Positions 837-41,490 of a stretch of 64,000 bases of DNA are shown piece after piece. The DNA comes from Lytechinus pictus (lineage: Eukaryota): assembly GCF_037042905.1 (NCBI RefSeq), contig NC_087245.1, forward strand, positions 27,034,001 to 27,098,000, written 5' to 3'. A program made the translations under genes and the position numbers. Below the pieces are notes generated by a model. The model did not search any database, was not told where the DNA came from, and was given only the letters and a program-made list of their open reading frames with translations. Every line of letters begins with the position of its first letter. Position 1 is the first letter of the stretch.

Positions 837-1160
837 ATGCAGAATGAGGGCAGAGGCAGAGAGCAATGGAGCACTGAGGAGGAGTGTTGCTCCAAATTCG
901 AGCAGAGGAAGCCGTGATGGCTGCAATGGATAACCCATCAGCGAAGCTGTATGCCGACGTAGTGGGTAAGCTACGAGAAAAGGGCATCATCAAAGACAAA
1001 AAACATGTAATACAAAAACTAAAGTACTTGAAAAAGAAGCATCATGGGATGGTGGCCCATAATAATAAAAGTGGAAACAACAAGAAAATGATTCCAAACT
1101 CAGATTTGATGGAGTCAATCTGGGGGACGAGGGCGAGCAAGAAACCCTTGAACATTGTTG
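837..1160 (+). pseudogene. Myb/SANT-like (trihelix-type) DNA-binding ORF fragment, Harbinger accessory protein
   Basis: MQNEGRGREQWSTEEE, frameshift, then LLQIRAEE..LYADVVGKLREKG..KLKYLKKKH..NNKSGNNKK..LMESIWG. Confidence 0.7.
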
Positions 1161-1534
1161 TACAAATAAACACCATAGAACAAGAAAATTGTGGACTAGT
1201 ACAGCGTGTGCCAATAAAAATTGGCACATTATTTTTATCTCAGCCGATAGGAAATACTGCAACAAATCAATCTATTGGGAAAGCAAGAATGATCTCTCAA
1301 TTATTTTCACTGTTTTAAAGCACTTATGATCGTTTTAATCTACAATTCCTCAGCTTCCCCCACTACTCCAGCAAGCCCAATGTAAAACTGTGTGTGTGTG
1401 TTGTGACAAATTATACTACATTCTTTGGCTGAATTGTGAATTTTGATTATTATTAAAAAACGGATTCATGGATACTATGAAATTTGGTAGATGTCTATTG
1501 TGCACTATTTTCATAAAGATCTGAAAAAATCCAG

Positions 1535-1975
1535 TTGAAAGAGACAGCCTGTACAATCTGGCAGGATATTGTTTGCACAGCATCAAACGTAAACGAAAAA
1601 ACATGCGTCATGTGTATGAATGCTGTGACAAGAGGACCAGATGAGGAGATTCACCAAGCATCAGAACTCAGTTGGCTGAAAGAATACAAGACAGGTTGTC
1701 TCATGCAAATCTCGTCTAAAGCTTACGACATGCTCCTAAATGTTGAGTTAATGTTTCGCCGTTTACAGAGCACATTGACAGAAAACACAAATGTCAGGAC
1801 CCGTCTAGTGGCCGAAGCAGAGTTCTGCAACAGGAATGTCGACCTGCCAACCTGTCATGACATCAAATCAAAACTGTTGAGCAAGTTCATCAATGCCCGC
1901 TTGCACTTTTACTGCAGGAAGAAGAATGTGGAACTGAAGGCAGAGTTGGCAAAAAACAAAAAAGGTGGTGAATTT
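1535..1975 (+). pseudogene. C-terminal fragment of a P-element (THAP9-like) transposase
   Basis: CxxC...LKEYKTGCLMQIS..ELMF...PTCHDIKSKLLSKFINARLHFY resembles the P-transposase C-terminal Zn-binding region. Confidence 0.6.
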
Positions 1976-2580
1976 TTTGCAAATATTACGAATATTATGG
2001 TATGGAATCGGGCTGGTATTGGTGGTAAAACTAAAAAGGTACAGGGGCCTAGGTAACGCAAGTATGGGCCGGCCACCAGTACAGTGCACGCATTAAGGCG
2101 CATGTGTACATAGATCTACATGTACATCATTACATGACGTTAAAAAACCCTCAAAAAACTGAAACCAATTGCAATTCCTGACTGCCTGACGTGCATGTAC
2201 AAACTCATAACCTTCACTACGTGTACTACTACTAGTGGTATACCCTAGACTTTTTCCTAGCTCCATGATCGATTTTGGTAACAATTATTATAGGCCTAGA
2301 CCTATGGCTATAGAATCTAGGGTAACGCGCCCAGTATTCGGTCACCTCCCGGTATTCGGTCAGACAGCTGTTGTAACAGCTGTCAAAAACTCATGCATAA
2401 TGCATGAGCAAAAAAACTTTCACCAATCACGCACCATAACGGCACCTTCAAACTATCTCAAAACTGACGTCGGTCAAGAGGAGGGAAGTGTTCAGAACGT
2501 ACCTGAAATTGGACTGCATCGGGTGAGTTTTATTCACTTCCGGGTTTCTTAGCAATTGAGTTAACGTACATAGCCTTATG

Positions 2581-3962
2581 GGCCCGAATTCTCAAAGGGT
2601 GGCTAACTTAGCCCGTGCTAACTTAGCCCACTGGGCTAACTATCCCCCGTGGGCTAATTTAGCCCACCGAGCATTTCTCAAAGCGTGGGCTAGTTAGCAC
2701 CCCCGGTTAACTTAGCCCACTGGGCTAAATATTTAGCACAGTGGGCTAAATCATGAACTGAAGCTAGCAAACTATTATCAACATCATACAACTGTACTGA
2801 GCATGCTCAGTACAGTTTTGATGCTTGCAGTGCAGTGTGCAGTACCCACATAGCAACAAGATGGAGGGTAAAGGTAGATGTGCCAACTGGCAACTGGCTG
2901 AAGTCAACCACCTCCTCGAACTTGTGCATGACAATGCCGCGATATTTTCAAATAAGTGTTCGGACATTAACACAAACAAAAAGAGAACAGCTGCGTGGGA
3001 GGCGGTGAGAGCCAGCTTTGATCACAGGTTCGGTCAAAAGTATACTCTACAACAGATAAAAGAAAAATGGAAAAAGATGCGGGTCACCGCCAAGAAAGAG
3101 TACAGCGAATGGAGTAGGAGCTGTAAAAAAACTGGAGGTGGTCCTCCTCCACAGCTAAGTGAGTCCACGAAGATGATACAGGAGATTGTACCAGCAGATT
3201 TTGTGCAACTTGTCAATCCCTACGATGATGACGTTGGTACAAATGATCGAGCAATAACTGCTTTGGAATTTCTGGCAAGAGGAAGAGGGAATCAAGTTGA
3301 GGAAGACGACGAAGTCGAAGACGTCGACGAAGTTCACCTTACTTTCCAGTGAGTTAAAAAACTACTTCTTATTTAATTAAAAAATAACTACATTCAAAAT
3401 TTCATGACTTGACGGGCTCTCTTCGACACAAATATGTATATACGGGACTACGAGAAATTATCATCGTGCTCGTGGCGACGATTAAATGGTCTTTCCGCAA
3501 CATCAATTTTCAACTAATATTCTGATGCATTGAATAAGCACATATATGAAAAACAAATTCAACATGTAAATCAATAACTATCGAACTCTTATGTGAGCGT
3601 AATTTACTTACGATTTCGTATGAAAATTTGAAGAAACACGCACAATCTCCACTACTTTGCAGCAGCGATAAAACACTTCTACAAGCACTTTTTTGGCGGC
3701 AATTACTCGCGAAGAGAAATTACTACGATTCTGTTTTCTGATTGGTCAAAATCGGCGGGCTAATTTAGCCCACGATTTAGCCCATGGCCAAAGGGGTGGC
3801 TAAATTTGTGACGTCAAATGACGCGATTTAGCCCACGATTTAGCCCGGGCTAAGTTAGCCGAGCTTCGAGAAATGCAAAATTTAGCACCATGGGCTAAAT
3901 GACGTCAAATGACGCGATTTAGCAACATGGGCTAAGTTAGCCACCCTTCGAGAATTTGGGCC
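2581..3962 (+). mobile_element. Non-autonomous PIF/Harbinger element retaining only the Myb/SANT ORF
   Basis: TIR GGCCC(G/A)AATTCTC(A/G)AAGGGTGGCTAACTTAGCCC at both ends. 3-bp TSD ATG (2578-2580 and 3963-3965). Many subterminal TTAGCCC repeats. Confidence 0.9.
2861..3348 (+). CDS. Myb/SANT-like DNA-binding protein (MSANTD/NAIF1-like), first exon of the Harbinger accessory ORF
   Basis: MEGKGRCANWQLAEVNHLLELV..KKRTAAWEAV..QQIKEKWKKM..KKTGGGPPP, ending at donor CA|GTGAGT. No downstream exon seen. Confidence 0.75.
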
Positions 3963-5396
3963 ATGTAGACTCCTGTTACGTAATAACGCTGTGTGTAGGT
4001 GCAATGAATTTGGTACGAGTGTGAAGGGGAGATCTTGTGTGTTCACCCTGTCGCAGCGAATTTGCAAATGGCGCTGAAATCGAGGAGCAACGGGGTATAT
4101 ACTTTACCCTTACCATGAGAGGGCGCTCGACCAAAATTCGGTCGGGCAACATCGAGTGTCTTGCCGGCGTGTTTGTGACGAGGGAGGAGCGTGCAAAGAC
4201 GCATTGCTCCTCGCAAGTGAAACACTTTTCTTAATTCATTTTCTTTCTCAAATGATATGTTAGGCCTACATAAGTTTAGAATAAATCTACAATTATTTTT
4301 ATGAATAAAAATCTTAAAAACATAGATGTTTATTTCCTATGAAAATGCAATTTGAGTTGGTGAATGACAAAGGTGACGATGTTGACGATGGCGACGATCT
4401 TGATCAAGGCTCATTTTTGATTGCCTTTGCGTGATCGAGTTGAAATCTTAATGATTTCCTCTTAGGTCTATCTCAATAGTTTAGATGCTTTCATAATTAT
4501 TCTCAACTACATTATTATTATTTTAATTAATATATCAGGCCCAAGTCCAGGGGGCGGAGCCCCACCCCCTCCCCCCCCCAAAAAAAAAATTATAAAGGCT
4601 ATCCCACGATAGTATTTTTAAAATGACGTTATTGGTTGGTCAAATGCCAGAAAATTGCACCCCCCCCCTTACTGAGAGCAATTTTGCCCGCCCCTTACAT
4701 AATGTCTTGGATCCGCGGCTGGTTAGTTTTATTTTATTTTTCATTTAAAACAAAGGGGTTTAAATTAACATTATCATTATCGTCATCATTGCTAAAATTA
4801 TCAGTCGAAACTGGATTACAATGTTGGCGAATTTGGTTGATATTTTATGTTTCCTGCTGTGAATTCAGATGGAATGTTCAATAAGTTAAAGTGGTTTATA
4901 CATTGGATGAAATTTCCCCTTCTCTAATAATTCTTAATTCTTTGAGTTCATACTTAACCAAGATACTGTAATATTATTTGATGAACGGTGCACAAGTTGA
5001 CGAATATTGTGTAAATTGATATGAAACTATACATCAATGATCATACACAAAGATTGATGATTATCATGTTAAGCCTATGAGAACCGATTTTCATGACAAC
5101 AATCTTACTTGCCACATAAGAAAAGTAATGTTTTTAATGAACATGAGAAACTATGCCTACACCAGATTAAACATCCCAGGGCTACTGGGTTATATTTAAT
5201 GGGAAATTCCAAGTGTGTGTGGGGGAGGGGGGGGGGCATTCTCCTTTCTTGGGGAAGATTTTATAACATTACATTCCCAAGAGTATACGTATTGTAGTTC
5301 AAAAGAATTATACCCTTTTGAAAACTTATTTCCATTTTTCAACAAATATTAATTCATCAATTTCAATGATTTTTTTATATATATATAGATATCATA

Positions 5397-8144
5397 ATGC
5401 CTTACAGACGATATAGCCAACAACAGGTAGAAGATGCGGTGAAAAGAACCAGGGTCGACAAGATGTCAATAAGAAGGGCATCACAGTTATATGGGATACC
5501 TTCATCGACGCTTGGGGATAAAGTAAGTTGGTCTACACTTTCTTTTTTACTTAACCAACCCTTAAACTAAAAAAAAAATATCAATCAGCAATTTCCCTCA
5601 TATGCTGTGTAATTCAAATGTTCTAATTTCTCCTTACCCGTTTCTCCACAGATCGCTGGGAGGACACCAATTAAGTCCACACAAGGACCAAGTCCATACC
5701 TGTCAGTTGCCAAGGAGGCGAAATTGGCGGCCTGGGCGAAGAAGATGGCAACACTTGGGTTCGGGCTGAACAGGCTCGAGTTACAGCAGGTGAGCCAAAA
5801 TTATTCGTGGGTCTAGTCTTTCTTGTTTCTTTTTTTTCCTCTCTTAATTTTTTTCTTGATCACTTTCACGCGTTTTAAAGGACCATTGATGTAAAGGAAA
5901 TAAAATACTTATAATCATAACGAGAGCAGTAGTTTGTGTTTTTATTATGTTACCAGAAATTGTGATGTTGTAGGAAGTTGCAATAAAACGATGAATGGGT
6001 GTGAAAAGGAAAGTGTAAGAAAATGAGATATAGGCCAACATGATAAAGGAAATTATGAGGTATATTCCTTTCTCCCTTTCTTCATTGCTCCAAATTTTGA
6101 TAGACTGCTGGGAAGATGGCCCTCGAGGCCAACATACAAGCCCCCTTTAAAGGGATGGTCCGGGCTGCAAGTATGTAAAGCTTAATAAATAGAGTAGAAG
6201 TCACTGAGCAAAATGCCGAAAATTTCATCAAAATCGGATAACAAATAATTAAGTTATTGAATTTTAAAGTTTAGCAATATTTTGTGAAAACAGTCGTCAT
6301 GAATATTCATTAGGTGGGCTGATGATGTCACATCTCCACTTGTTCTTTTGTATTTTATTATATGAAATTAGGTTTATTCAAATTTTTTCCTCCAAGAACT
6401 AGAAAAATTGGATTGACAACTGATTTAGTGCATTAGATATTTATTGCTGCAACTTATTTCATTATAAGGGAGACATATTATTCACACAAGTATGAAATAA
6501 TTAAAAAAATAGGATTTTATGTAATAACATAAGAGAACAGAAAGTGGAGATGTGACATCATCAGCCCACCTAATGAATATTCATGATGACTGTTTTCACA
6601 AAATATTGCTAAACTTTAAACTTCAATAACTTAATTATTTGTTATCCGATTTTGATGAAATTTTCGGCATTTTGCTCAGTAAATTCTACTCTATGTATTA
6701 AGATATAAATACTTTCAGCCCGGACCATCCCTTTAAGGATGGGACCCCAGGAGAAAAGTGGTTGAGGGGGTTCTTCCGTCGGCACCCGGAGTTGTCTGAG
6801 CGGAAACCAGAGCTGCTAGGAGGGGAAAGAGCGGTAGTTACCACCCATAAGATGGACAGGTTTTTCGAAGATCTTCAAAAATACCTTGAGGGCGAGGGCT
6901 GCGCATCAATCCTTACGTCGCCACAACGGATCTTCAACTGCGATGAGACGGGGTTCCCGCTCTCTGGGAAACCATGTCGCGTCATAGCGACCAAGGGCAG
7001 TCGGACGGTGAGCGCCGTCAGATCAAGTAACAAGTCACAAGTAACAGTGTTAGCAACAATATCAGCGTCAGGTGACGCACTGCCACCGACAATTGTTCTG
7101 GGTGGACAAAGGTTCAAGGAGAACCCCATGGAGGGTGCCCCCGTCGGCTCATATCTGGGTCGGAGTGAAAATGGATGGATGGACTCAGAGGTCTTCTACG
7201 AGTTTGTCGCCAATAGTTTCGTGCCCTACATTGAAAAAAATAACATCCCCAAACCCGTCCTCCTTCTCGTAGATGGCCACAGTAGCCACGTTAATTACCA
7301 CGTCGGAAAGTTATGTAACACTTCCGGTGTGGTGCTGTACCCCTTGCCTGCCCATGCTAGCCACATCGTACAGCCGTGCGACGTGTCTTTCTTTAAGCCC
7401 CTCAAGGCTGCGTGGGCAAAGGCCGAGAGGAAGTTCCGACAGGAACACTGGGGCCAATTTGTCACCAAGTACACATTCGCAAGTGTATTCCGAGGCCCAT
7501 GGGACGCCACCGCCCAAAGGAGGGAGCTTATACAGACAGCCTTCAGAGCGACTGGGATTTTCCCGTTTACTGGGCAGTACTCGAGGGAGAAGCTTGCTCC
7601 TTCAACAGTGTACGTCGTGGAAGCACAGGATGGTAGAGAAGCAAATGTCCCTGGTCCATCGGGTGATGCCCCTTCAGCATCAACAACTACAGATGTGTCA
7701 GAGGGCCTGGCCCTTGAGAAGCACCTGCTTTTTCTGGTCATTCCAAAAAAGAAATCCGGGAAACGATCAAAGGAGAATATGCCTAAGTGCATTAGTAGTG
7801 AGGCCTACCTCAAAGTCTTGGAAGACAAACAAGCAGCAAAAGAAGAGGAAGAAGAAAGGAAAAGAAAGAGGAAAGAGGAGCAGGAAGCTAAGAAGAAAGA
7901 GAAGGCAGATGGAAAGAAAGGCGGAAAGAAGAAGCAGAAGACGAAGAATGTAGAAGATGTTGATGTCGAAGAGGTAGATGAGAATGTTTGCCAGGAATGC
8001 GAAGGGGAATACAATGATAACCCTGAGGATTGGGTAGGGTGTAACTTTCGCCCAAGGTGGTTGCACATCGTATGCTGCATGGGCTTGGATGGCCTTGACG
8101 ACGAAGAAATAGAAGCGCTCAACTTCAAATGTCATTTCTGTTAG
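5397..8144 (+). pseudogene. pogo-type transposase (HTH_psq + CENP-B HTH + DDE_1 + C-terminal PHD finger), 3 exons, interrupted by a MITE
   Basis: Exons 5397-5522 (MPYRRYSQ..SIRRASQLYGIPSSTLGDK), 5652-5789 and 6104-6150 + 6737-8144. Motifs NCDETG, LVDGHSSH, QPCDV. PHD CQEC..WVGC..WLH..C..CHFC. Confidence 0.9.
6151..6732. mobile_element. Fold-back MITE with TTAA target duplication (Kolobok-like)
   Basis: TTAA|AGGGATGGTCCGGGCTG ... CAGCCCGGACCATCCCT|TTAA with long inverted arms. Removing it restores the PFKDGTPG reading frame. Confidence 0.9.
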
Positions 8145-8167
8145 AGATAAAGATTATTTTATTACAT

Positions 8168-8596
8168 GGGCAATTCCACGGTTAGTAACGTTACATTTTT
8201 AGCAGATTTTGGTATTTCATCCTACTGTAATATCACCATCTATTCATTTCAAATCACAATAATGGTACAACATGTTCACACACCCTAGGTCTACAATACA
8301 AAAAAAATTAATGCAATTCAACCAATATTGCATGCGCCATCGTAACTTTTAATGTTGGTTAGTAACGTTACCAAAAAATTTATTTTGTATCGTTACTAAC
8401 CAACATTAAAATTTACCATGGCAACTGCAATATTGGTTGAATTGCATTAATTTTTTTTTGTATTGTAGACCTAGGGTGTGTGAACATGTTGTACCATTAT
8501 TGTGATTTGAAATGAATAGATGGTGATATTACAGTAGGATGAAATACCAAAATCTGCTAAAAATGTAACGTAATGTTACTAACCGTGGAATTGCCC
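8168..8596. mobile_element. Fold-back MITE with 4-bp TSD ACAT (Sola-like)
   Basis: TIR GGGCAATTCCACGGTTAGTAAC, arms ~200 bp, ACAT at 8164-8167 and 8597-8600. Confidence 0.8.
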
Positions 8597-9276
8597 ACAT
8601 AAAGATTATTACTTTGTCACCAGTATGTTTATCATCTGTTTTAGCCAATCTAATTCGAGGATTTCATGACGTCAATACAGACACAGCGATCATATTAAGT
8701 GCAACAAGATCCATGAAGTAGATATAATTTTTCATAAAATGTAGTTATTCTTTCCAAATTTGAGTGAGAGAAATTAAGATGAATTAGTCTTCAATGACTT
8801 CTTATATCACAATGTTTCAAGGAAACGGGACTCAAGTCATATAGTCCTATTAGGAATCTGACAGATTTCATATTCGCTTTTGACAGGTTCCCCCCCCCCC
8901 CCACCCCGAGAGAATAATTTTACAGTCCAGTAATAATTGTGTATATATTCTATTGTAATAATATACCCCCACTTTACCTTAAACAACATTTGCCGATAAC
9001 CCGTCACAAAAGTGGAATGTTAGGATGGAATATTTTAAAAAGAGATGTTTGATTTATAAAAGAAATTATATCGAAATTTCCTCTTCACTCTTCCTATATC
9101 GTAGGCCTACATGGATCTCAATAATCGAGCCGATCATTTCATTGTCAGAAATGAAAACAAATGTTAAATCACCCAAGAAAATAAAAAGAATATAATTGCA
9201 TATATTCTATATGCAATTGTGGAGCCCTGGTACTAATTATTACAACGAGAACCAGATCATTATGTTTGTCTTAAAT

Positions 9277-9870
9277 GATCACATATTATATCTCCGCTTC
9301 TACTGACATTGTTTATGTGAGATTTTTTATTTTGCAGTGCAATATTGATTTTTACATTCCATTGATTGTATTCATATCATTCTTTTTATCTAAATTTATT
9401 TATTGTAGACGGCTCAACAAGAAATTTGAATTTTGTTACGGAGTATATAGCATTGATTTCTTTCAATTTAGAAATGGTACGAAACTGATTTTATCTAACC
9501 TAAATGTATCAATACTACATTCATCTTGCCATTCATTTCGCTGAAATAACAATAATAAAAAAGAACACCTTGTCTTATATGATCAGATATTATATCTCCG
9601 CTTCTACTGACATTGTTTATGTGAGATTTTTATTTTGCAGTGCAATATTGATTTTTACATTCCATTGATTGTATTCATATAATTTTTTTAATCTAAATTT
9701 ATTTATTGTAGACGGCTCAACAAGAAATTTGAATTTTGTTACGGAGTATATAGCATTGATTTCTTTCAATTTAGAAATGGTACGAAACTGATTTTATCTA
9801 ACCTAAATGTATCAATACTACATTCATCTTGCCATTCATTTCACTGAAATAACAATAATAAAAAGAACAT
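9277..9870. repeat. ~300-bp tandem duplication in the pogo 3' region
   Basis: GATCA(C/G)ATATTATATCTCCGCTTC starts copies at 9277 and 9581; copies are near-identical. Confidence 0.9.
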
Positions 9871-10835
9871 CTTGCCTCCAAAGATGTTACAATAAAGTTT
9901 TAATAACATGTTGCCCATTCGACTCTTTGTCTGTATTGAGATGGACGAAAGCATTTGAATATGAATTGACTGGTTAAAAAACCCCACACAATCCCAAACA
10001 AACAAACAAACGAGCAAACACATGCATCTAAATGAAACAACAAACGGGTATTAAACCAATTAAGTTGGCATTTTATTACCTACACAACTAACAAAAAAAA
10101 ACCAAACAAACATCGGAAAACATAATAACGCAAAGCAAAATAAGTGATTGAAAGTAGAAAATTGAAAATCATAAACAAAGTAAAACAACACACAAAGGAT
10201 CTTTGCCTGTACAAGAAAGAAGAACAAAAAAGAGAAAAGTTATATTGGACATGTATTTTCATAGAATGAATAATGAAACATATATATATATATATTCAGT
10301 TTGCGTCATCACATTTTTCAAACCATATCGCGTTCAGTCTTCTTCCACTTGTTCTGTTATTTCAGGTGGATTAATTAGGTTTTATTATTATAATTTTTCT
10401 AAATAAAGCTTAAGAATGCATAATTAAGATGTGGAGATCACATAAAACAAATAAAAAAACAGTAAGCATAAGAGAAATTGTAATAGTTAACATCGGAGAT
10501 ACAGTGCATTACCGCGCGACCGAATTCTGGGCGGCGTAAGCGAATACTGGGCGGAAAACATCTCCTCCTTCTATCAGCGATATTTTGTTCAACATGATTT
10601 AATATTTTAAATGAGTTTGATAATCTTTTAGAGGACAACTTTTTCTTTCTCCTGGTTGGTGGATTTACAAATAAATGAGGTAGGTATTTATTTTATCGGC
10701 GATTTCCCCTTTAGTGACCGAATACTGGGCGCGTTACCATATACCTGATTAAAAGTATAAAGTGAGACTTGTACTCTAGTTAAAATCAAAGTGTAGCTCT
10801 ACATTAATGTTTTACTTCTATTTTGTCATATCCAG

Positions 10836-13800: not shown

Positions 13801-14821
13801 GTAGATGGTTTGTTTGATGCCTTTAACAGTCGTTTTTTCAGAGACTAAAAAAAACTGAAGAGGCGGTTGTCACAAAAATCTGCACATCTGAAGTACTTTG
13901 AGAAGTGCCTTCCTGTCCTCGACAATCTGAAGGTGCTAGGATCGAAGAACGTTCTCTTCATCAAAGGATGGCAGTTAGCCATATCATGCCTCAAACAATT
14001 ATGGCAGCACCTTCAATCTGAGTTTGAACTCAAGTTTATGTTTACCTTAAGACTGAACCAGGACATTGTTGAGAACCTCTTTGCCACAATCAGGAGGAGA
14101 GGAGAATGCCGAGACAACCCTTCAGCAAAAGAATCCAGGTGTGCACTGAGGATGGTGATGGTGGCTGAACTTATCAGACCAGCTATTGGTGCCAACTGCT
14201 CGCCAGATTCTGACAATTTTGTCATCACGCTGCAATCTCTAACCAAGAAGAAAGCAACAGCAAACAGACAGACCACATGGACAACTCCATCCACTCAGAA
14301 GAGTACTGTATTCAGTAATGTGCAGATCAAGCTGCCAGAGAAGAACACTCTTGCATACATTGCTGGATACTTGTGTCGCCGCTGCATTACTGGACATGAG
14401 GTACTATCATCCTGTCATGTTTGCAGGGAGTCTCTTATTGCAGAAGAGACACTAGTCAGTGACCCTGCCTTACTGTTCATCATCACAAGGCATATGAAAC
14501 CAACATGTCTGACTTTGGATCCCTCATGGTCCCAACTGACACATTTCTTGATTTCTGTACGCAGTGTGAGGATGTGATCCGTCAGGAATTCTCGGGTGAC
14601 AAAATGGCCAGAAGTAAGATCTTCTTTCTGCTAACACAAGCCTGTACAACCTCCCAGTTTACAGGGATTTGAAGATGTGTTCAGAACGTGTGAAGATGAG
14701 GCTTGTTGCCACATTTGTGAGTATCCGTATGCACTATGCCTTAAAGTTTAGGAACAGGAATTTACACACAATCACACAGAAAAGAAAGGATACAAAAGCA
14801 AAGAAAGTTTTGCACAAATAG
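10836..14821 (+). pseudogene. P-element (THAP9-like) transposase pseudogene with THAP-domain exon
   Basis: THAP exon 10836-11021 (CQKWVQN..RLCADHF..LKWNAIPTIF, one stop). Core in frameshifted ORFs 12812-14577 (FDEMSL, DQGSSN, DPPHLLKNTR, KMRVNKAAQVLSHSVA, LNQDIVENLF). Stop at 14819-14821. Confidence 0.9.
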
Positions 14822-15364: not shown

Positions 15365-15501
15365 ACATACTCATTTTGCCCATAGACTGCAGTGTTATTT
15401 ACTTTTATGATGTTCCTGACCTTAAGACATTATTTAGAGATATTTCACCATTATGTATTGTAAATTTCCTAAAGGAGATCAATCTTTTTATTAGATTTTA
15501 G
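15365..15501 (+). mobile_element. 3' end of ORF2 of an RNase H-containing LINE (I/Nimb-like)
   Basis: FYDVPDLKTLFRDISPLCIVNFLKEINLFIRF* resembles the typical ORF2 terminus. Confidence 0.5.
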
Positions 15502-16285: not shown

Positions 16286-16879
16286 CTGTATTATAGTAAC
16301 CTTTCCAGATTAACTGTCCAACACTTATATGACAAGCATGTGTTGATAGTGTCGTTAATTTTTTATCAATCAATCAATCAATTGACCTGCAATTGAATTA
16401 TTCTTGTGGGTATGGTGTGCTACATTATGGAGTCCAGAACATAAATTTATACAACATAAGTTCCTTAAACAAAAGGCTGTAACTTTTTAATGGAAGGGAT
16501 TTTTATGAAAATGACTTGGCAGGAATGTTTCTTTTTTTCATTGACAAACTTTAGTATGAATATGCGATATATCCGTTACTGAAATGATCGAAGTGACTGG
16601 AGAAAATTTGGAGTCGCATGCTGCGCAACAGAATGATGATGATGATGTTTATTAAGAAAAGGTTACCAACGTATCGGGGTGCATTACAAATTTAGATAAA
16701 ACAAAAGAGTACATTAAATATACAATAGTCACAAAACTCTGTCATTGAAAATTCAGGTAAAGAGTTAAAATATCTTACATTTAATGACTTAAGTGTACCA
16801 GTATAATAGGTATGCTTTGATGGTGTGCTGCAAACATGTTGCGGTGAACTGTTCTTATCCTAGTGAGGAGGCCAGGGGA

Positions 16880-20519: not shown

Positions 20520-20656
20520 TATGTCATAGTGTGGTGGACTATGTGGTGACCGCCACAGTGTAAGGGACTATGTGGTGAATGCCATAGTGTGGTGGACTTT
20601 GCGGTGACTGCCACAGTGTTTATGGACTATGTGGTCATAAAAGTGTGGTACACAGT

Positions 20657-24965: not shown

Positions 24966-25139
24966 TGTCTGATATTAGGCGGTCTTACTCTATATCAATC
25001 CAAATTTTATAGGATAGTTCAAAAGGGATTTTTAAGGCTTATCTGCTACGCATCAAGCAGGTTTCACCCTTTTGTTCACATCAGTTACGCTGTTCAAAAT
25101 CTATCAATTGAGTTCCATAAAGCATTCATGTTTTTTCTA

Positions 25140-30500: not shown

Positions 30501-31554
30501 ACGCACCTTCTTGATTATTCGTAGTTGATGCATATCATGGATGTAAATACATGATACATGTACCATACTATTCAAGTGCAGGGGGCCCAAAAGTTCACCA
30601 TCCGCCCCCCCCCCCCCCATCCCCGAACAATTGGTTTGTATGCACATACATGCAGATTGCAGGGCCCGTGAACAAGCAACAATTCCTGGCATAAAAGTGG
30701 TAAAATATCACAATTATCCAAGTGTTTGTAGGTATTAGTAAAATACATGTAGACCCTATTGTAGTTTAATTATTGATCATTAGTTGATTGCATTATTCGA
30801 TAGTGGCACAAATTTTGACTGCTAGAATGGTAGCCAACCCAGACAAAACTAGCTACATTTTAATTAATAGATTAATTTCTCCCCCTTTTCAGAACAAAGA
30901 ATGACAGAAGAAAGAGCAGGCAGTCAGGATCTTTGGCCAGAGATGGATCCCTCAATTGCTCGATTCTTACAGGAGTCACAGCCTTCAACTTCAAGTTCTC
31001 GGGTTCAGAGTCCGCAGACATCTGTCAATCAAACCTTAATGCCAAACCCAGTCATAACCATCAGGCCGTGAGTAGCAATGTATACTTTCAAAGTCTGGAT
31101 GTTTTCCAGTTTGTAACTATTTGATTTCTATCATTTATGTTGATTATTTTTAAAATCTTGTTGTGCATTAATTTTGAATTGAGGAATATAGGTCTGTCAG
31201 ATTGACAACCATCATGAATAAGCTCACTTGATATACTATTTGGTCTATAACCATTTGATGCAAACTTTACTTGGTCTAATGTTCAATTAGTCTAATTGGA
31301 TGTTGCAAGAAACTAACGCTCGATTGCAAGTCTATAACGCTTCTCATAATTAAGCCTGATTGTTCGTTGCAAGAAATATTAATGCCCATTGAATGCAAAT
31401 CAAATCGACCATAAATTTCTGTTTAATCAAAGGACCTGTACTGGATTTAGGGACTTCATACCTGATATAGAAACTGTATTGTCTAGTGTTAATCTTGAAT
31501 AATATAAAAACCAACCTGATTTTATTATTATTTTACGTGAACAGAATTACCACG

Positions 31555-31947
31555 TGTACTGATACGATGAATACAGTTCTTTGCCGGGAGGTAGAATACG
31601 TTAATCCATTCAAGTTCAAAGAAAGAACTAAAGAAAGAGGGAAGGCATGGGAGGAGATCTCCAGCAATTTAAGAAAACATGGTTATGAGGTAACCAAAAG
31701 GGCGGTCAGAGACCACTACAAAGTTCTTCGGGATTCAGTAGTGAGGAGGAACAGTGAAGAATTGAGACAAAGTGGCGTAGCTCCTACTCTGACTGATGGT
31801 GAACAGGAAGTGACACAAATAATTGAAGATCTCGTCGAGGTAGAAAAGGAAACCAAAGAACAACAGACTGAGGAAGGGAAAAAAGAACTGGACGGTGTGG
31901 AAATGAGAAAAAGGGCTTTAGAGACCTTTAAAGAAACAAGTAAAAGG
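31555..31947 (+). pseudogene. Myb-like Harbinger accessory ORF exon (different subfamily)
   Basis: VLCREVEYVNPFKFKERTKERGKAWEEISSNL..TKRAVRDHY..ELRQSG..EMRKRALETFKETSKR|gtaaac. Confidence 0.7.
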
Positions 31948-32165
31948 TAAACTGATCATTCTGAAGGCTGTTTCATGAAAGATATGAAGCTCAGAGAAGT
32001 TGTCAGATTATGACATTTGATAGTGCCTGGTGATGCTAATCCCATCAGAACTGCTGAACTCTTGGAGCTGACATCTCTAATTATAAGAAACCCCAATTAT
32101 TTTTTAATTTTTCATAATTGCAATTGCAAAAACACTAATCATTGCACTTTAATTGCCACCGTTAA

Positions 32166-32681
32166 AGGTCAAGTCCACCACCGAAAATATGTTCATTTGA
32201 ATAAACAGAGAAAAATCAAACTAGCAACTACAATCAAATTTCATCAAAATCGGATGTAAAATAAGTAAATGAAATGTTTAAGTTTCGCTTATTTTTCATA
32301 AGACGGTGGTATGCACAACTCAGTGACATGCAAAGAAGACAGTCGACGATGTCCCTCACTCACTATTTCTTTTGTTTTTTATTGTTTGAATTATACATAG
32401 TATTAAGTAATGCTAATTCCGCATGTTCCGCTTGATAAAGAGGAGAAAATAAGAATATTTCATATTTCATATAATAAAATGCAAAAGAAATAGTGAGTAG
32501 ATGACATCATCAGTCTCTGCATTTGCATACCGACCAGGATGTGCATATAACTTTTCTGTGAAATTAAGCAAAACTTTAAAAGTCTTATTTTACATCCGAT
32601 TTAGATGAAATTTTCAGTGTTCTGCTTGTTAGATTTTTTCTTTTTATTCAAATTAACGTTTTGTTGGGGTGGACTTGTCCT
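32166..32681. mobile_element. Kolobok-like MITE
   Basis: TTAA|AGGTCAAGTCCACC ... GGTGGACTTGTCCT|TCAA; related copy at 61399-61870. Confidence 0.8.
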
Positions 32682-33269
32682 TCAATTGGCTACAAAAAGA
32701 TTATCTTGATATTTTCACCCCATTCATGCATAAGTTTTTGAAGTGTCATAATGTAGAAAGTATATGGACCTAGTGAATGAAACTTGGACATATTATAATG
32801 GTGTATCATTTAAGATCCAGCCTTAGTTTCAGGTCATATGACAAAGGTCAAGTCTTTGGCCATGTTAGGGATAAATGGTGTATCATTTAAGATCCAGCCT
32901 TAGTTTCAGGTCATATGACTAAGGTCAAAATTTTTGGCCATGTTAGGGATATTTGTTGAACTGTCATATCTTTTGAAAGTTTATGGCTCTTTTGATTGAT
33001 ATGGCGCTTCATTTGTACCTGAGGAATCTCCTGTTATATATGACCAGGAAACCAAGGTAGTTAGTTATCCTCACATTTCATGTTAATACGCAATTCACAC
33101 TATTCAAGTGAACACAATAGCTCCTCATGCGCCGATATCTAGAGAAATCTTAGGCTCTGAGGAATCAAGATGTGGTGGTATTTTCCAACTGTTTCGAAGC
33201 CAAAAGCTAATGAGGATAAAAGGAGAAAGCAAAAAAGTGAAGCAGCAAAAGCATATGATGACACAAAAT

Positions 33270-33649
33270 GACAAATGTACCCATCAGAACGAAGTCCAGT
33301 CAGCATATTGGACCACAAATTCTGCGACCCTGCTTCCCATGGTGTCATACTACCATTGTAAGTTGTGCTCAAGCCTTGTGACAGACAGCATGATATTCAT
33401 AAGTGATGATTTATGTCACGACTTCAAGCAGTGGCATGCAAACATCTTGTTGTAACGAGAGAACTACATCTCCGGCAGATATACCGTTTTTCTGATGGTT
33501 GTGGACAACAGTATAAATCACGTGGTCCTATTTCCGACATTAGCTACGCAGTCGCTGGTCATGGGGTACCCTTACACCACAACTACATGGGGTCACGCCA
33601 TGGAAAAGGGGCTGCAGATGGGGAAGGTGGAATAGTCAAACAAGACTAG
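33270..33649 (+). pseudogene. Sola2-type DDD transposase core fragment
   Basis: QNEVQSAYW..FISDDLCHD..FSDGCGQQYKS..GSRHGKGAADGEGGIVK. Confidence 0.75.
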
Positions 33650-34934
33650 TGACAAAGATTGCGGTCTTGTATCCTGTCGAATGTTATGAGGGTTAAACTT
33701 AATTTCAATGTTGATATGTAAGTGAGTGCCGATTGGGGTGGTTGATGTTTTGTTTAACATGTATTTTTTCATATGTTTTTCTACCATTCAATTCAGAAGG
33801 TAGAATTTGAAGATACTATGTACCATAGAAATTCATGTTGACCGTATAATTTGGTTAAGATTAGGCAGTAATCTACATGTGCAGCAGACATGTTTTTTGC
33901 TGTTTTCGCTACAATTTTTTCTGATTTTCTGTGTCATGGTATTTTCCGCCAAGAAAGTAAGTATGAGACCAAACTATAGGAATTTTAAGGGGTTCGAATT
34001 TCTATAAACTACCAAAATGTTGAACTTCCTACGAAACTGAACTAAATCTGAGAGGTGGCCCGTACCATATGTCAGTAGAAGCTACATGTTTGGTATCCAA
34101 GCAGTTTGCATGCCCCTCATCCAAGGCCAAACTGTTATAGACTCATCTCTAGATAATTTCTCATTAGGGACATTCTTTTTGTTTAATACAACTTATTGAT
34201 GAATTGTCCTCAGATGGAACTTTAATTTCTTGTTTGTTTCATATTTCAGAACACATGCAGACTTTAGTAGATGTCGATATTGCTGATAATGATAAAGTAT
34301 ATGTAACTGCAAATTTTCAAAAATTATTGGAGGAATATATACCAGACACATTGCACTTTTAACTAACAGCTCTGTTATTTGTGGAAATGAAGATCATTCC
34401 ATAATTAATGGTCGCATAGGTCATTTATGAATAAATTGAAATAGCTTTGTTTTTTTTTTACATGATTTCGATCTATTATAGATTTGGAGGGTCAGGTCAT
34501 ACATGTAGGTATATAAAAAGGTCCTTATGTACATGTACTTGAAAATATATCTTTTTTCACTACAACTTTGAGGAATCAACTTTGTACTTTGCTCTGGTAC
34601 ACAATAAATGACAATGATATTATACGATCTATGGTCCAATAGGCACAGAGGTCATTATTTTAAAAGTATTTAACTTAATTTCTCTATAGAGTATTTGACT
34701 GCATAGTGTGTAGTCAAGGCTCAAGCAAGTTCTTGCGTAACCCAAGTAGTCATGCTCCAGAATGTTTGGTATTATTGGTTATCAAGTTTCATCTGTTTAA
34801 AAGCGAGCAATTACTATTATAATCAGGATCACATTTCGTTGTTTTATTTTTCTCATTGCAAGGTCTGCATTTTCCCTATTTCTCAGTATATTTGAGAATA
34901 CTGACGCAGGTTAACTCTTTTTACTTTTAATCAG

Positions 34935-35135
34935 AAATGAAAACCTGCTACAAGCAGATTTGGATGCTTGGAAGGAGCAACAGGTAACGGGTGACGGGGC
35001 ACCTAATCACCTTTACATAAGAAGGAAACACCTGATGGCTGACACTCTTGGGAGGTTCCGAGGTATGAGAGCATTCCATATTAGACTACTTGCCTCATGT
35101 TTATATGAAGCTTCGGAGATGAGCTGGGCCAAGTA
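34935..35135 (+). pseudogene. HECT-domain N-terminal fragment (G2E3-like)
   Basis: LYIRRKHLMADTLGRF followed after frameshifts by FGDELGQ resembles the start of the HECT N-lobe. Confidence 0.4.
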
Positions 35136-35455
35136 GCCCTTGGATTAAAGGCAGAACAGTCACACGCAGTATTCAGATTTCAGGCATAGAGGGTCATGGG
35201 TTTTACTACTGTGAAAGCAATAGTTTGCGAGAAGTTTGGCTTCAGAAAGTCAGCTTCTCAGAATACCCAGTATCTCATGGGCATGATAGCACTAAGTTCA
35301 ACTTCAAGCGAAAAAGGGGTGCTGCCTTGTTATGATAGCTACCCTGCCAGCTGTAATGAAGCGGCCCTAGAAAAGCTGACCAAGACGAACATGCATCAAC
35401 ATACAATAATGAAGGTCTTAAAGTACCCTAGAAGGAGTTATCTTGAAGGAGAAGG

Positions 35456-35695
35456 ATGAGTGATGTCATGATGATTCCTGAATCACTAAGACATTACATC
35501 ATCTGGCTTCATCATGATCCTCCTTCAGCAGGGCATGCTGGGATCGATAGCACCCAGGCATGTCTGAAGACACATCTGCATAGCCAGGAATGCAACTCGT
35601 ATAACAAGAAAGCGACCCGTTCTGGGAGGCATCCTACGAAAAATTTCCATGAGAGTGCCCCCATGGAAGGTTTTTATCTTGATTTCATTATCAAT
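35456..35695 (+). pseudogene. Gypsy integrase zinc-binding (H2C2) fragment
   Basis: IPESLRHYIIWLHHDPPSAGHAGIDST..EC..APMEGFYLDFI. Confidence 0.7.
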
Positions 35696-36589
35696 CCTGG
35701 TTATGGCAGATTAAAGCAAGGGAGCTCTATTGCCTCAAATAAAGGGGCAATGCTACTCCCTCGCACCTGTCTCTGCATGCCAATGTGTGAATCTATTATA
35801 TTATATGATGTGTATTTTAATGCAATACAAGAAAGGTAAAATGGATGCCTATAATTTACAACATAATTTCACCTATAATTTATTACCCAATCAATTTTGT
35901 ATGCATCCCTTATTGTATATATATTAATGTATTAATAAAATAGAAAAGTTAAATGGTTGATAATATCCTATTATGTATATATTTATTAATTTGCCTATTT
36001 GTTTATTTTTACTTACATGTAGGTACATACATGAACATGTAGGTATGGGCAGTGAGCTTATTTAATTAATTTATATCAAGGCAAAGACAAGGTAAGAATA
36101 TTTTTTATGATTTGTAATGATGTACTAGTATGATGTATTAGATTGGTATTGATGTATTTATGTTATATTTATGTTTTATGAACAAAGAAGAAAGAGTCAG
36201 AATCAGTCAGTCAGTCCCATTTGCTCACACACAACAAGCTAAGGAGGCGTTGTACAATAATTTCTATGACCACCAGCCTCCAGAAATGGAGTTATAATAT
36301 GGTTTGAATTTAATAAATGTGAAACTTTACATTTTTAGCAGGATTTAAGAGCTCTGCAAAATTGTATATTTACAAAAATTTTACACTGTATACTGAAAGA
36401 ATAAAGATGATTTCTAATGTATATGTTCTTCTCAAATTTTAATGTATAGATGAGCAGAGCAGTATTTCAGCTGGCAGTGATGTAGGGACCATATCCGAAG
36501 ATGAGGAAGATGTGTTTACAAGATGGCGAAGGAGAGTCCAGTGACTATGATTCTGATGAAGAAAGAGATGTGCCTTTCTTGGAGAACTT

Positions 36590-37263
36590 CAATGAACCGC
36601 TTTTCAATTGGACACAAACTACAAAATCTGAGGCAGCATTGATGATACTGTCATTTATGATGAGATCATGAGATACTGTCTCTCATCCATTGCTGGTATT
36701 CAACTGTGTGAACTTATCAACACTTTATTTGGAGAAGTCACTTTCACATCAGTTGATAAGGTTTTCAAGACTGGATTCTCTATAAACAAGGTATTGAAAT
36801 TAACCTTCCATTTTTTATTGTGTGTCCTGTTATGCCTTTGTTAAATCATACAACATACTTGAAAAGGGAAAATTTCTTGTGTCCACACTGCAATCACCCA
36901 TGTACTGTAAATAATTTGTGTCAGCAAAACTGTTTCATTGCAGCAGACCTTCCCACCCAAATACGATCACTTTTTGAGAGACCAGATATTTCCCCTCATC
37001 TTGCATATAGGAGAACCCGGAATAAGTTGTTCCCTAAAAATATTGAGGATATTTATGATGATGAAATATATAAGAATTTGATGGCAGATGAAGTATTATT
37101 AGGCAATGAAAACAATTTTTCATATACGTTCAATACCAATGGATTTCCCGTGTCTGCATCTACAAGATTTTCTATGTGGCCTATACATGTAGTTTTGATG
37201 ATAAATGAGCTACCTCCTAAGTTCAGGCACAATAATGTGTTACTAGCAGGCATATGGTGTGGT
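36590..37263 (+). pseudogene. EnSpm/CACTA transposase fragment
   Basis: CPHC..DLPTQIRSLF..IEDIYDDEIYK..SYTFNTNGFPVSASTRFSMWPI..INELPPKFR..NVLLAGIWCG. Confidence 0.85.
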
Positions 37264-37862
37264 TTTTTATCCTTTATCTGCATATGCCTTAAAAATATTT
37301 ATTCAGTTATACTTTGACGACTTAATGTTTAACTAAATCACTATATTCCATGCACACTTTTTAGTTTTAATTCGTTGAAGTTCAATATGCTATACTGTAT
37401 GAAACGATAAGGTATATACAATTGAATGTGTTTCATGATCATGCACACTTTTTTTTATAAATTAATTGGAAAAAGATTGACACTTACATAGTCAAAGTTT
37501 CGGATATTACACTGTTTCTGTAAGGAAGACAAGATGGCAACTCTTCATAATTGGTTTACTAGTATTTTGCTTATTATATTATGTCTATATGTTCAGCCAT
37601 GTAGCGCAATGCCAAAAGAACCACAGCACAATTAATTTCCTCATGTTGTAAACATACAACTAAATAATTTTTTCTTACGTAAACTAGCAACCACTATGAA
37701 CGCCAAAAATGACCCTATCAAAGAAGATAATATTGACCCAATAGTTCAGGCAATTCTTTCTAAACATCAAATTGGAAGGGATCAGATTCATTTACATATC
37801 ATTCATAGATTACTTATTGGAAAACTGAAATACATGAAATGTGCGCTTAAACTTGTTCAAAA

Positions 37863-38369
37863 AGACCCACGACGACGTACTTGAGAAACTACTGACTGAC
37901 CATTCACCAGACTCACCTTTGGCGAGATTCATGTCTCATCTAAAGAGTGAGAACCGATGTATACTGAACGCCAACCAATGCCTACTAGACACAAACCGAC
38001 GACTAACAGACGAGAATGTGACCCTCCGTGCTCAGGTAGAGGCTACTCGACTAAGGACCCAACGACCGAACACGACTACCATTGACGAGAGGTGATGATC
38101 GGCATACCCGGGGCGAGTTGGGGGATGGCAAAGAGCGACTTTAACGAGGCCTACGACAAGTCCTCCACTGCAAAGGAGCTGATCCTAAAACTCATGGGGA
38201 AGGTCCTAACAAGGGAAGAGCTGGCTAGGTGCAATTTTTACAGATGCCAGGTATACAACGGCAAAGAAATGGTCACCAAGGAGAGTCTGAGCACAAAGGT
38301 TTCATTCCAGGCGATCGTAGCCCAAGCAGAGCTGGTGTATCCTGGTGGGACTTCCACTCAAGCCTTTCA
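37863..38369 (+). pseudogene. Coiled-coil + BEN-domain-like ORF fragment, copy 1 (truncated)
   Basis: AKELILKLMGKVLTREELARCN..KESLS..FQAIV; near-identical to 40910-41414. Confidence 0.6.
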
Positions 38370-39709
38370 AAGATCCGGTTTCAGAACAGAAGCTCTTTTG
38401 GAGAAGTGGAAGCGCACAACTTATGAACTAAAACTTGCCCATCGATCGGGATCTCCTGCCAAAACAAAATTGAAAGAGGTTAAGGATGAACTAAATGAAT
38501 CACTGGAAGAGCTCCTTGATTCTAGGAAGGTTCTTGGCGAGTTGAAAGAAAAAAAATAAATTGAATTGGAGGACAAAGCGTTTGTATATAACAAAAATAA
38601 AGTACAATCGAAACAGAGAGGTAGAACGAAAAGAAAATGTGTATCCAGCAAGGCACATAAGAGACAACAAAAAAAGCAAACAATTTATACTGTAAAGTCA
38701 GAAATGAATTCTGTCGCATGTTCATATGCTACTCCCCTTAGTTTCCGTTTCAAGAATGAATTTAACGAAGAAGTAGAGGTCCATTTTCCACCTGGAAAGC
38801 AGATATCTGAAAATTGTACAACAGATAAGCTCGATGATATTCATATTAGATTCTTCCAAGGAGGAGAAACCATGAGCTGGCTCAATCTAAACATTCTAGA
38901 TTAGGGACTCGGAACATGGCGACGCTCGTAGCAACGTAGAGCTCTCAGACGTTTTGGGACGACATGAGCCATTATGATGGCAACCATTCGTAAAATTGAT
39001 ATTTATCATTAATTCTAATCGTTACCAAGGTACCACTGATTCTTATCAGTTTGTTTAATAACGAAATTAGCTGTAGATCAAACCTTAGTCATGTAGATTT
39101 AGTGATTTTTATTGCATTTTCCACCATTATCTTTTTTTTATCAAGTTATGGGTTATTTGGTTGCCATGGTAACGCATGAAATGGCATTTAACTATTCTTA
39201 CATGGGTAGCAACAATCACTTTCTTGATCAGAAGCGATAAGGGAAAAAGGGGGAAAATTCAGATTCTACATTTTAAATCAAAATATTTATTTTTCTAGGG
39301 GAAAAGCCGTTACCATGGCAACCGTGTAATTTCAACTATTGGGATGACTTTAAATTTCTAGAAGTATTACTATTTATTGAATTGGAAGCTTAAAACTGTA
39401 AGATTGGGTAATTTATACCATGTTTATTTACCATTGAAAGGGATTATTTTTGAGAAAATAATCCGTTGCCATGGCAACCACCAAAGACAAGCATAATCGT
39501 GTTCAGCACCCTCTAAATAGGGGAAATGGAACAAAAATCAGATTCTAAGAAATTTTGAAAGAATTTTTTTGAAAACCAACTAGGAGCTGTGTACTATAAT
39601 GCGGCCTGGCAGGGATGAATTGCCCTGTTTGGTAATGGCGGCCGGTTTACATGGTCGGCACACGATTTGCCCGCAGTCAGCGCTCTAGCTACGCTTTATC
39701 CAACTCTAT

Positions 39710-40008
39710 GGGTTTAAAGTAAACCCTGCTTTAAAGTTGTGGTTTAACTATGGAGGGCCAATTGGAGCGAAAATCCCTTACAGTTCACATTCAATTAATT
39801 AACGGATATGACACCCAAATTGTTTGTAATTGTCTGGGAATGATAACTATAGCATTATTCTTCATTATGAAAGCAAAAGGAAACAAAATAGTAAACATAA
39901 GAAATATACAATATAAACAGAATTTTTGAATTTTTGGCTCCCATAATTTTAGCACAGAGTTAGACCATGGTCTACATGTAAGTTAGACCTGACTTCAGAA
40001 TACGGGCC
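39710..40008. mobile_element. Harbinger-type MITE, left end truncated
   Basis: Ends TCAGAATACGGGCC, the reverse complement of the GGCCCGTATTCTGA terminus seen at 20657. Confidence 0.6.
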
Positions 40009-40389
40009 AATATGTTTTATAGGGGAAGGGCACAATTCTCCATAATGGCAAAAACAGTTTAAAATTAAAGTGACACCATTTTTGTTTAAGTTGTAAAGTT
40101 AGAGCATTCTTGCCCGATAATAATGTTTATACAGACCTACTGACATAGAAGGGAGACATTCAATGACTGTTTGTAAAAATTAATGTATATTTTGTTCTTT
40201 ATCCTTTTCATCATCAGGTCCCAGTGACTGCTCACCCACCGGCTCACCTGCTTCTCGACCTTTTGAGGACATCTTCGACAACCATCTTGACATGACGCAC
40301 AGACCAAAGACTTGTGACATCTCCACCGACACAACTGACCTACCAAAGACTTCCCACTTCCAACCCAACACCACTGACAGATGTGGGAC

Positions 40390-40840
40390 ACCCCTATTTA
40401 TAGAATAGAAAATCCTTTGTTTCCAAAGGGGCAGTGGGCAACCTTTTGGCTTGGCTTGGCATTCTTACTGTACAAGCTACAACTACAAACAAGTGGCCTG
40501 ACCAACTCTCATCTTTTACTTTTCTTTTAAAGGTAAGCTTGCAACTATTTCTTACTGTACAAGCTACAACTACAAACAAGTGGCCTGACCAACTCTCATC
40601 TTTTCCTTTTCTTTTAAAGATTGCTTGAGTGAATGCTCATGTTTGTGGTGTTATAAGCTTCTACAGTAAAGTGCTGATACCCCTATTTATAGAATAGAAG
40701 GTCCTTTGTTTCCAAAGGGGCAGTGGGCAACCTTTTGGCTTTGCTTGGCATTATTACTGTACAAGCTACAACCACAAACAAGTGGCCTGACCAACTCTCA
40801 TCTTTTACTTTTCTTTTAAAGATTGCTTGAGTGAATGCTC
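40390..40840. repeat. Nested local duplications (a ~87-bp core x3 within two longer copies)
   Basis: TTACTGTACAAGCTACAAC..AAGTGGCCTGACCAACTCTCATC x3; CCCTATTTATAGAATAGAA x2. Confidence 0.85.
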
Positions 40841-40909
40841 GAGAGTGAGGGAGGCTACACAGACATTCGACCCTGGGACACCAACTTGACATGACTGCTT
40901 GATAAGACG

Positions 40910-41490
40910 AGACCCGCGACGACGTACTTGAGAAACTACTGACTGACCATTCACCAGACTCACCTTTGGCGAAATTCATGTCTCATCTAAAGAGTGAGAA
41001 CCGATGTATACTGAACGCCAACCAATGCCTACTAGACACAAACCGACGACTAACAGACGAGAATGTGACCCTCCGTGCTCAGGTAGAGGCTACTCGACTA
41101 AGGACCCAACGACCGAACACGACTACCATTGACGAGAGGTGATGATCGGCATACCTAGGGCGAGTTGGGGGATGGCAAAGAGCGACTGTAACGAGGCCTA
41201 CGACAAGTCCTCCACTGCAAAGGAGCTGATCCTAAAACTCATGGGGAAGGTCCTAACAAGGGAAGAGCTGGCTAGGTGCAATTTTTACAGATGCCAGGTA
41301 TACAACGGCAAAGAAATGGTCACCAAGGAGAGTCTGAGCACAAAGGTTTCATTCCAGGCGATCGTAGCCCAAGCAGCTGGTTTATCCTGGTGGGACTTCC
41401 ACTCAAGCCTTTCAGAAAGACATCCGCATCGCTGTTAATGCTAGATGTAGGCGCGCAGACTATGTTTTGAGACATATGAAGGACCACTGA
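40910..41490 (+). pseudogene. Coiled-coil + BEN-domain-like ORF, copy 2 (includes the C-terminus)
   Basis: As copy 1, continuing after a frameshift to AFQKDIRIAVNARCRRA..*. Confidence 0.6.

Follow-up and report, generated by a model that had tools for sequence, protein, structure and literature searches.

The window analysed here (64,000 nucleotides of Lytechinus pictus, C1:27034001-27098000 in an 812-Mb animal assembly) contains a transposon block of about 45 kb in which coding pieces of unrelated transposons all point in the same direction. The block starts about 5.5 kb to the left of the window and ends at position 41481, and the nearest protein homologues were those of sea urchins. It sits between convergent genes: plus-strand Methyltransf_FA-domain genes, ending about 10 kb before the window, point into it from the left, and its right edge is found 4.6 kb downstream of the stop codon (near 46126) of a minus-strand tubulin gene, to which the transposons are antisense. 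The co-oriented nest behind the tubulin gene is real and unusual, and it is not unique in the genome. On balance, and with considerable reservation, we favor the interpretation that the block is a one-strand source of PIWI-interacting RNAs (piRNAs), rich in DNA transposons and probably fed by read-through of the tubulin gene, like the loci known as piC-DoGs. This interpretation was drawn from the DNA layout and from faint stranded RNA.

The strand bias was determined on stop-to-stop open reading frames (ORFs) of both strands, starting before 42.5 kb and scanned with Pfam. For ORFs of at least 52 amino acids (aa; E <= 0.01), transposon-type matches occurred in 14 of 126 on the plus strand, 4 of them falling under the curated Pfam cut-off, and in 0 of 129 on the minus strand. 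ORFs of 38-51 aa (E <= 0.003) added 2 of 136 versus 0 of 150 (150 of the 153 minus-strand ORFs were scanned), giving a combined tally of 16/262 for the plus and 0/279 for the minus strand. Further pieces that could be oriented by homology (a P slice, a SET-linked, a Zator-like, an EnSpm and a DUF7869-like piece and two unnamed genes) were all on the plus strand. The co-orientation announced in an earlier sequence-only reading of this stretch was thus borne out, and its statement that the block holds no host gene also stood, as no known host gene family was found there. Its p value of about 2e-6, calculated for 20 independent insertions, had to be weakened because several ORFs belong to one element or are tandem duplicates: after merging, 12-16 independent orientable insertions remained, all plus, corresponding to p values of about 5e-4 to 3e-5. 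The 22 identified coding pieces made up 27% of the block. Inspection of the sequence to the left of the window, which the same reading had proposed, revealed the continuation of the block with an HTH_23 match, again on the plus strand (stretch L001:4515-4739). In 180 kb of flanks, where 108 of 111 ORFs were scanned, transposon matches fell in both orientations, with 1 plus and 4 minus elements. The one-way strand bias of the block is real.

The density of the elements was as striking as their orientation. The background consisted of six family searches and about 297 kb of extracted stretches, not of random windows. Five families searched genome-wide gave 351 collapsed elements; Harbinger was covered by the best 150 of 402 matches and Myb by the best 150 of 170. 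For these five families, 0.018 elements would be expected in the window's 42 kb, which hold at least 5 elements of 4 families. Among the matches listed, this was the densest 42 kb, and elsewhere at most 2 families were found per 42 kb. The density therefore lies far above the genome average for the five families, the counts being lower bounds, and reflects enrichment and not only bias, because a loss of sense copies cannot raise density. Outside the window, pairs of different superfamilies less than 20 kb apart were on the same strand in 11 cases and on opposite strands in 0 (8 loci), and pairs at 20-500 kb were on the same strand in 25 cases and on opposite strands in 22. In all 5 pairs of a Myb and a Harbinger transposase gene less than 6 kb apart, again among the matches listed genome-wide, the two genes lay on opposite strands. 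The block holds at least 5 Myb pieces, all plus, and no DDE_Tnp_4 match on either strand.

RNA from the opposite strand was looked for in three paired runs of one study, depleted of ribosomal RNA and of unspecified tissue, of which about 6% each was mapped with strand information on 28001-48000. Partial matches to MITEs (miniature inverted-repeat transposable elements) from elsewhere made up 96-98% of the mapped reads, and 7 of the 27 bins in 28001-46009 were excluded as repeat-dominated. Over the non-repeat bins of 28001..46009, the part of the block covered, all three runs taken together gave a faint minus-strand signal. In the 13 such bins inside the block (28-41.3 kb), 2121 bases were first-mate-plus versus 80 first-mate-minus, and 7 of 39 run-by-bin cells reached a depth of at least 0.15 as first-mate-plus versus 0 as first-mate-minus. 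The 7 bins of the gap between the block and the tubulin gene gave 1614 versus 340 bases and 9 versus 0 of 21 cells at this depth. First-mate-plus stands for minus-strand RNA because reads in an exon of the minus-strand tubulin gene (46747-46587) were first-mate-plus, with 6 of 6 reads of run X23 at position 46704. The RNA over 28-41 kb, although faint, is thus minus-strand and antisense to the transposons. Neither DNA contamination nor active copies would be expected to look like this, as the former would show no strand preference and the latter would appear in sense. Over 32960-39100, the best 40 of 634 candidates contained no outside copy above 89%, only an internal duplicate, and the block reads there are therefore probably local. 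The minus-strand antisense precursor postulated in the sequence-only reading has thereby gained some direct but thin support in 28-41 kb, with coverage interrupted by zero-depth bins. Two unique pieces (168 and 223 nt) of contig set X1 on 28-48 kb were not used, as they carry no strand information and the run may be DNA. A repeat fragment at 29085-29355 drew about 10:1 one-stranded reads with consistent loose ends, which marks it as part of an abundant transcript elsewhere.

Two further loci, on C18 and C10, were chosen for their co-oriented matches. In C18:6.880-6.908 and C10:30.110-30.120 Mb, transposon-type matches were found in 8 plus and 0 minus ORFs (147 of 163 scanned). C18:6.880-6.906 Mb is a nest in plus orientation that contains Tnp_4, three Myb, Zator-like and DUF5641 pieces. 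In C10:30.142-30.172 Mb the direction was inverted, with transposon-type matches in 8 of 60 ORFs on the minus and 0 of 55 on the plus strand. The C10 nest is two-armed, plus at 30.08-30.121 Mb and minus at 30.146-30.169 Mb with the switch between 30.121 and 30.146 Mb; EnSpm was plus at 30.080 Mb and minus at 30.161 Mb. This locus is a candidate divergently transcribed cluster, since its two arms face a centre, a layout that would be expected if antisense transcription ran outward from there. No host gene was identifiable within 10 kb to the right of either the C18 nest or the plus arm on C10. Additional matches at these loci that are independent of the choice comprised a reverse transcriptase (L029), DUF5641 and Zator-like matches.

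We propose that RNA polymerase II crosses the block on the minus strand, most likely because it continues past the end of the tubulin gene, which lies 4.6 kb to the right; a promoter of its own in 41.5-46 kb may be an alternative start. Transposons enter this zone as DNA, nest in each other and are reduced by deletion and local duplication, as the elements described below show. Antisense copies, read as part of a single continuous precursor and processed to piRNAs, would silence their own family and be kept under selection, and sense copies would not be kept. With mostly low-copy cut-and-paste elements as the autonomous elements trapped, the result would be a DNA-transposon-rich counterpart of flamenco or of a mammalian piC-DoG. 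The CpG observed/expected ratio (o/e) of the block was mostly 0.34-0.55, like that of the neighbouring gene bodies, versus 0.65-0.86 in the comparison stretches L005-L016. Such low CpG is compatible with a long-transcribed, methylated domain but is not specific.

Several observations weigh against this interpretation. The RNA of the block amounted to about 14 reads (about 0.06 reads per kilobase per million), perhaps 5-7 fragments, and run X21, with almost no signal, contributed none of the 7 block cells. Coverage was patchy with several zero-depth bins, including 41341-42007, the data covered 28-46 kb and about 6% of each of the three runs, all from one study, and the strand calibration consisted of 6 reads of one run. 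The polyadenylation motif AATAAA was not depleted on the minus strand (45 versus 46 on the plus strand), and CpG loss in the pogo element of the block relative to a copy on C15 was 8 against 3, which is not significant. As for the genome comparison, 4 of the 8 close-pair loci have Myb upstream of P and may each represent one composite element and not two insertions. The only Myb element with intact ends was inserted as a Myb-only unit, so Myb-only content need not mean trimming after insertion. Since the C18 and C10 loci were chosen for co-orientation, only their additional matches are independent, and one LINE-like piece (long interspersed nuclear element) at the edge of the C18 nest was on the opposite strand.

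A wider proposal, which we put forward tentatively and with clearly less confidence than the one for the block itself, is that sea urchins counter low-copy cut-and-paste transposons with distributed one-strand antisense traps, some fed by host-gene read-through, as at the present locus, some transcribed outward from a centre as on C10 (at least 90 kb). Selection on the coding strand would leave just the antisense half of each two-gene element, and an assembly alone would suffice to predict the piRNA map of the germ line.

The strongest competitor, unlikely in our estimation though to be taken seriously, is a minus-strand read-through tail, long non-coding RNA or large intron devoid of piRNA output, where sense insertions are purged and antisense ones drift. 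Splice and poly(A) signals of sense copies would disturb such a transcript, and with purging neither the bias nor the faint minus-strand RNA would call for small RNAs. The level of this RNA indeed resembled background read-through, the block lies in a CpG-poor domain common to adjacent gene bodies and, according to the piC-DoG study, most read-through genes yield no piRNAs (PMC11615739). Purging, however, leaves unexplained why low-copy DNA-transposon genes should be denser here than anywhere else in 812 Mb (for the five families), and it would be weak in a non-functional tail. No exon of a known family turned up on the minus strand of the block, and transposon orientation in the 180-kb flanks was mixed. 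A mechanistic insertion bias, in which a hot spot would receive elements in an orientation set by transcription, replication or a resident element with no later selection, appears improbable. Insertions are nested and recent and short-range co-orientation occurs genome-wide, as such a bias would have it, but it would have to span unrelated chemistries (pogo, P, EnSpm, Zator-like, integrase of long terminal repeat (LTR) elements). Moreover, orientation tracked the coding strand and not the element ends, though the Myb and transposase genes of Harbinger are opposed.

We see very little chance that the block is a single large composite element, a few of them, or a segmental copy, carrying co-oriented gene cargo. 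A composite could be reconciled with the order of Myb upstream of P, which is seen at four loci as well as at 878-1974, with the ends that the Myb element has in common with 8-14 kb elements, and with direct local duplications, which inflate the piece count. The sequence-only reading had itself named recurrence of the whole block as a multi-copy element as a check, and no collinear copy was present among the best 20-40 candidates of each genome search; neither did scans for tandem repeats, composition and terminal inverted repeats (TIRs) find termini enclosing the whole block. A single large mobile element with collinear copies and common termini was accordingly not found among the best-scoring candidates. 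In addition, the pogo copy on C15 is free of nested inserts, the inner elements carry their own TIRs and target duplications, an 8.5-kb relative (L025) has no such cargo ORFs, and the pieces diverge from 0% to about 20% from the nearest copies listed. As a full explanation, the composite element is largely refuted. Equally remote is a plus-strand transcript reading through from the Methyltransf_FA-domain genes, which face the block and stop about 10 kb short of the window, and carrying the transposons in sense: the RNA data begin at 28 kb, to the left of which such a transcript might run, but the RNA in 28-46 kb is minus-strand by the tubulin calibration, and sense transposon transcription is normally selected against.

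The layout shares characteristics with several known systems. In productive piC-DoGs of mammals, a read-through transcript crosses antisense fragments that are densely packed (Konstantinidou et al. 2024, PMC11615739). In the block, too, dense transposon fragments lie just downstream of a host gene, antisense to it and over tens of kb, and faint RNA on the gene's strand persists past the tubulin stop codon, with zero-depth bins. Unlike the block, piC-DoGs are mammalian with LINE-1 and endogenous retrovirus content, and the term 'DNA transposon' occurs 0 times in the main text of that study (PMC11615739). They are also defined there by mapped piRNAs and demonstrated read-through, whereas the block is known from its layout and faint RNA. 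Drosophila flam-like clusters are described as spanning hundreds of kb, with their own promoter, expression in follicle cells and a strand bias for which Gypsy LTR elements are responsible (van Lopik et al. 2023, PMC10643416). Like flamenco, the block is a one-strand array of nested transposon remnants, antisense to what would be a single transcript; unlike flamenco, it is about 45 kb long and made mainly of cut-and-paste elements. With one integrase fragment among about 16 pieces, it falls outside the strict Drosophila definition with its Gypsy-driven bias, as worded in that paper (PMC10643416).

Mollusc piRNA clusters are likewise invertebrate and rich in DNA transposons, with an enrichment of young elements (Kolobok, hAT up to 108-fold for Lymnaea; Jehn et al. 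2018, PMC6128900). The sections of that report consulted give no orientation statistics, so that a one-strand antisense layout is not established by them (PMC6128900). Planarian Seed (type A) clusters are, according to a preprint, likewise large, one-strand, rich in antisense transposons and gene-poor (bioRxiv 10.64898/2026.01.28.702291). Their antisense enrichment concerns LTR elements, whereas DNA transposons are enriched mostly in sense orientation in type B clusters (bioRxiv 10.64898/2026.01.28.702291). One-strand piRNA clusters were also reported in a sea anemone (PMC5793845), and in fly host 3' untranslated regions antisense insertions can start piRNA production (PMC13226689). For one sea urchin, a review mentions clustered piRNA-like RNAs (Wei et al. 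2012, via PMC13666137), and its relevant section gives neither cluster anatomy nor strand layout. The same review notes that the echinoid gonadal piRNA repertoire was surveyed in the testis of one species only and names this gap (PMC13666137).

Our literature search, which covered the main texts of accessible papers, returned no strand-biased piRNA cluster described in an echinoderm. In cnidarians, transposase-rich antisense loci were reportedly found by Grimson and colleagues in 2008. Loci that give rise to piRNAs are well mapped in flies and mammals, and those of the one-strand antisense type target retroelements there. If confirmed, the block would extend the piC-DoG read-through route to an invertebrate deuterostome and to DNA transposons, and its dated, nested insertions could be used for testing the trap model. 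Block and sister loci form a set that one small-RNA library could confirm or reject together. Should no piRNAs be made, the strand bias would need another cause, and caution would be called for in calling clusters from assemblies alone.

The anatomy of the block showed nesting and slicing side by side; all pieces listed are on the plus strand, except for the MITEs, which have none assigned. At its left end within the window lies a Myb/SANT fragment (878..1315; PF13837, E 8e-4, below cut-off; 81% DNA match on C13), followed by a 444-bp C-terminal slice of a P-element transposase (1531..1974) with 96% DNA identity to C6:10245330-10245778, a match that adjoins a 601-aa P ORF. A Myb gene upstream of a same-strand P-type transposase, as at 878-1974 of the window, was also observed at C2:33.90, C2:50.35, C3:12.57 and C4:23.08 Mb and is possibly the arrangement of a composite P-like family. 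At C6:17.788-17.804 Mb, 11 degraded P-type RNase H matches were arranged in tandem, all minus.

The next element is a full-length pogo (2315..10741) with 28-nt TIRs, a TA target site, HTH_psq at 5370-5567 and DDE_1 at 6737-8141. It differed from the C15 copy by 47 substitutions in 5132 aligned bases (about 1%), and that copy is without the nested inserts. The pogo of the block later gained a Myb-only element, a further 1.3-kb insert and a MITE with a TTAA duplication (6147..6736), which interrupts the transposase and breaks its reading frame. The Myb-only element (2581..3962), with 37-nt TIRs and an ATG duplication, is probably of Harbinger type, as judged from its 3-bp target-site duplication and its Myb domain. 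About a dozen loci carry 8-14 kb elements bounded by the same ends (96-98%), and one of these relatives (L025, 8.5 kb) has no long ORF. A near-complete P element (10894..14574) retained THAP, HTH, RNase H N, GBD and RNase H C and was damaged by one in-frame stop, one frameshift and a multi-copy repeat inserted at 11021-11884. Another multi-copy repeat contributed its 3' end at 15401..15500 (97% aa to L023:7093-7422; many copies at 94-99%; no Pfam match); we take it to be LINE-like.

Protein homology identified 16854..17666 as an internal slice (aa 642-880) of a 1354-aa SET-domain protein, presumably Crypton-like. Its protein identity to the 1354-aa protein of another sea urchin is about 92%, high for a decaying fragment. 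Myb/SANT fragments follow at 18199..18654 (PF13873, E 8e-9) and, as a tandem duplicate (94.5%) recognized by Pfam and self-alignment, at 20519..22111. Between them lies a very young MITE (19983..20525), copies of which are up to 100% identical across the genome; insertion into the block is therefore recent or ongoing. A C-terminal slice of a Zator-like transposase (22527..23141) had 88% aa identity to protein P0013, itself a weak DDE_Tnp_ISAZ013 match (E 1e-3). Then come a second pogo-type N-terminus (HTH_psq, 23724..24701; PF05225, E 7e-4, just below cut-off) and a DUF7869 transposase-like fragment in two pieces (25036..26147; PF25273, E 3e-23 and 9e-5).

In the right part, a Myb/SANT fragment (31471..31947; PF13837, E 3.5e-4, below cut-off) precedes a DUF7869-like DDE fragment (33410..33646; Atlas feature score 0.93, with DUF7869 on 69% of the matched cluster), which we assume to be Sola2. 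An LTR-retrotransposon integrase zinc-finger fragment (35447..35836; PF17921, E 2e-5, just below cut-off) has copies of 77-89% elsewhere, and an EnSpm/CACTA transposase slice (36543..37314) showed 73% aa identity to a PF02992 protein. Unnamed gene B (37555..38841), recognized by homology and self-alignment, is interrupted by 507 bp (37863-38369) copied from unnamed gene A, and 14 homologues gave no informative Pfam family; 38086-38556 had no usable Atlas match (best score 0.81). With the homology-based gene A fragment itself (40226..41481), the block ends on the right. Most pieces left of 24 kb were 93-100% identical to their nearest copies and those right of 29 kb 75-92% (among the matches listed), a possible age gradient that would put the older pieces nearer the tubulin gene.

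Of the family labels given in the sequence-only reading, piggyBac, MULE, BEN, HECT and Gypsy gag were left without Pfam support: in six stretches read with stops as X, 0 of 18 plus-strand frames matched any Pfam family. 'Crypton-like', 'Sola', 'LINE', 'CR1' and 'Penelope' are labels which we assume from motifs, with no Pfam match. That the block holds about one slice per family was wrong in part, given the full-length pogo, the near-complete P and Myb domains in at least 5 separate places. Genuine slices are present too, such as the 444-bp P piece and the 507-bp piece of gene A copied into gene B. The image of a curated library is unsupported; ordinary DNA-level insertion, nesting and local duplication gave rise to the nest.

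The divergent tubulin gene (46126..52772, minus strand), which points into the block, was identified by Pfam Tubulin and by a match to a tubulin C-terminus in PDB; we take it to be of the delta/zeta type. By eye, its last coding exon was assigned to 46197-46126, with an apparent GC donor at 46586 before it. Beyond the 3' end of the gene lies a 99/203-bp tandem array (45523-46162), which by eye starts with copies of the end of the exon. Further right, at 54853-55430 and 56001-58000, plus-strand ORFs of 164 and 83 aa with no assigned family lie beside a CpG-rich bin (o/e 1.0) holding a perfect 494-bp tandem duplicate. The tubulin promoter may be marked by these features; if so, the Penelope-like piece at 59-61 kb would lie outside the tubulin introns.

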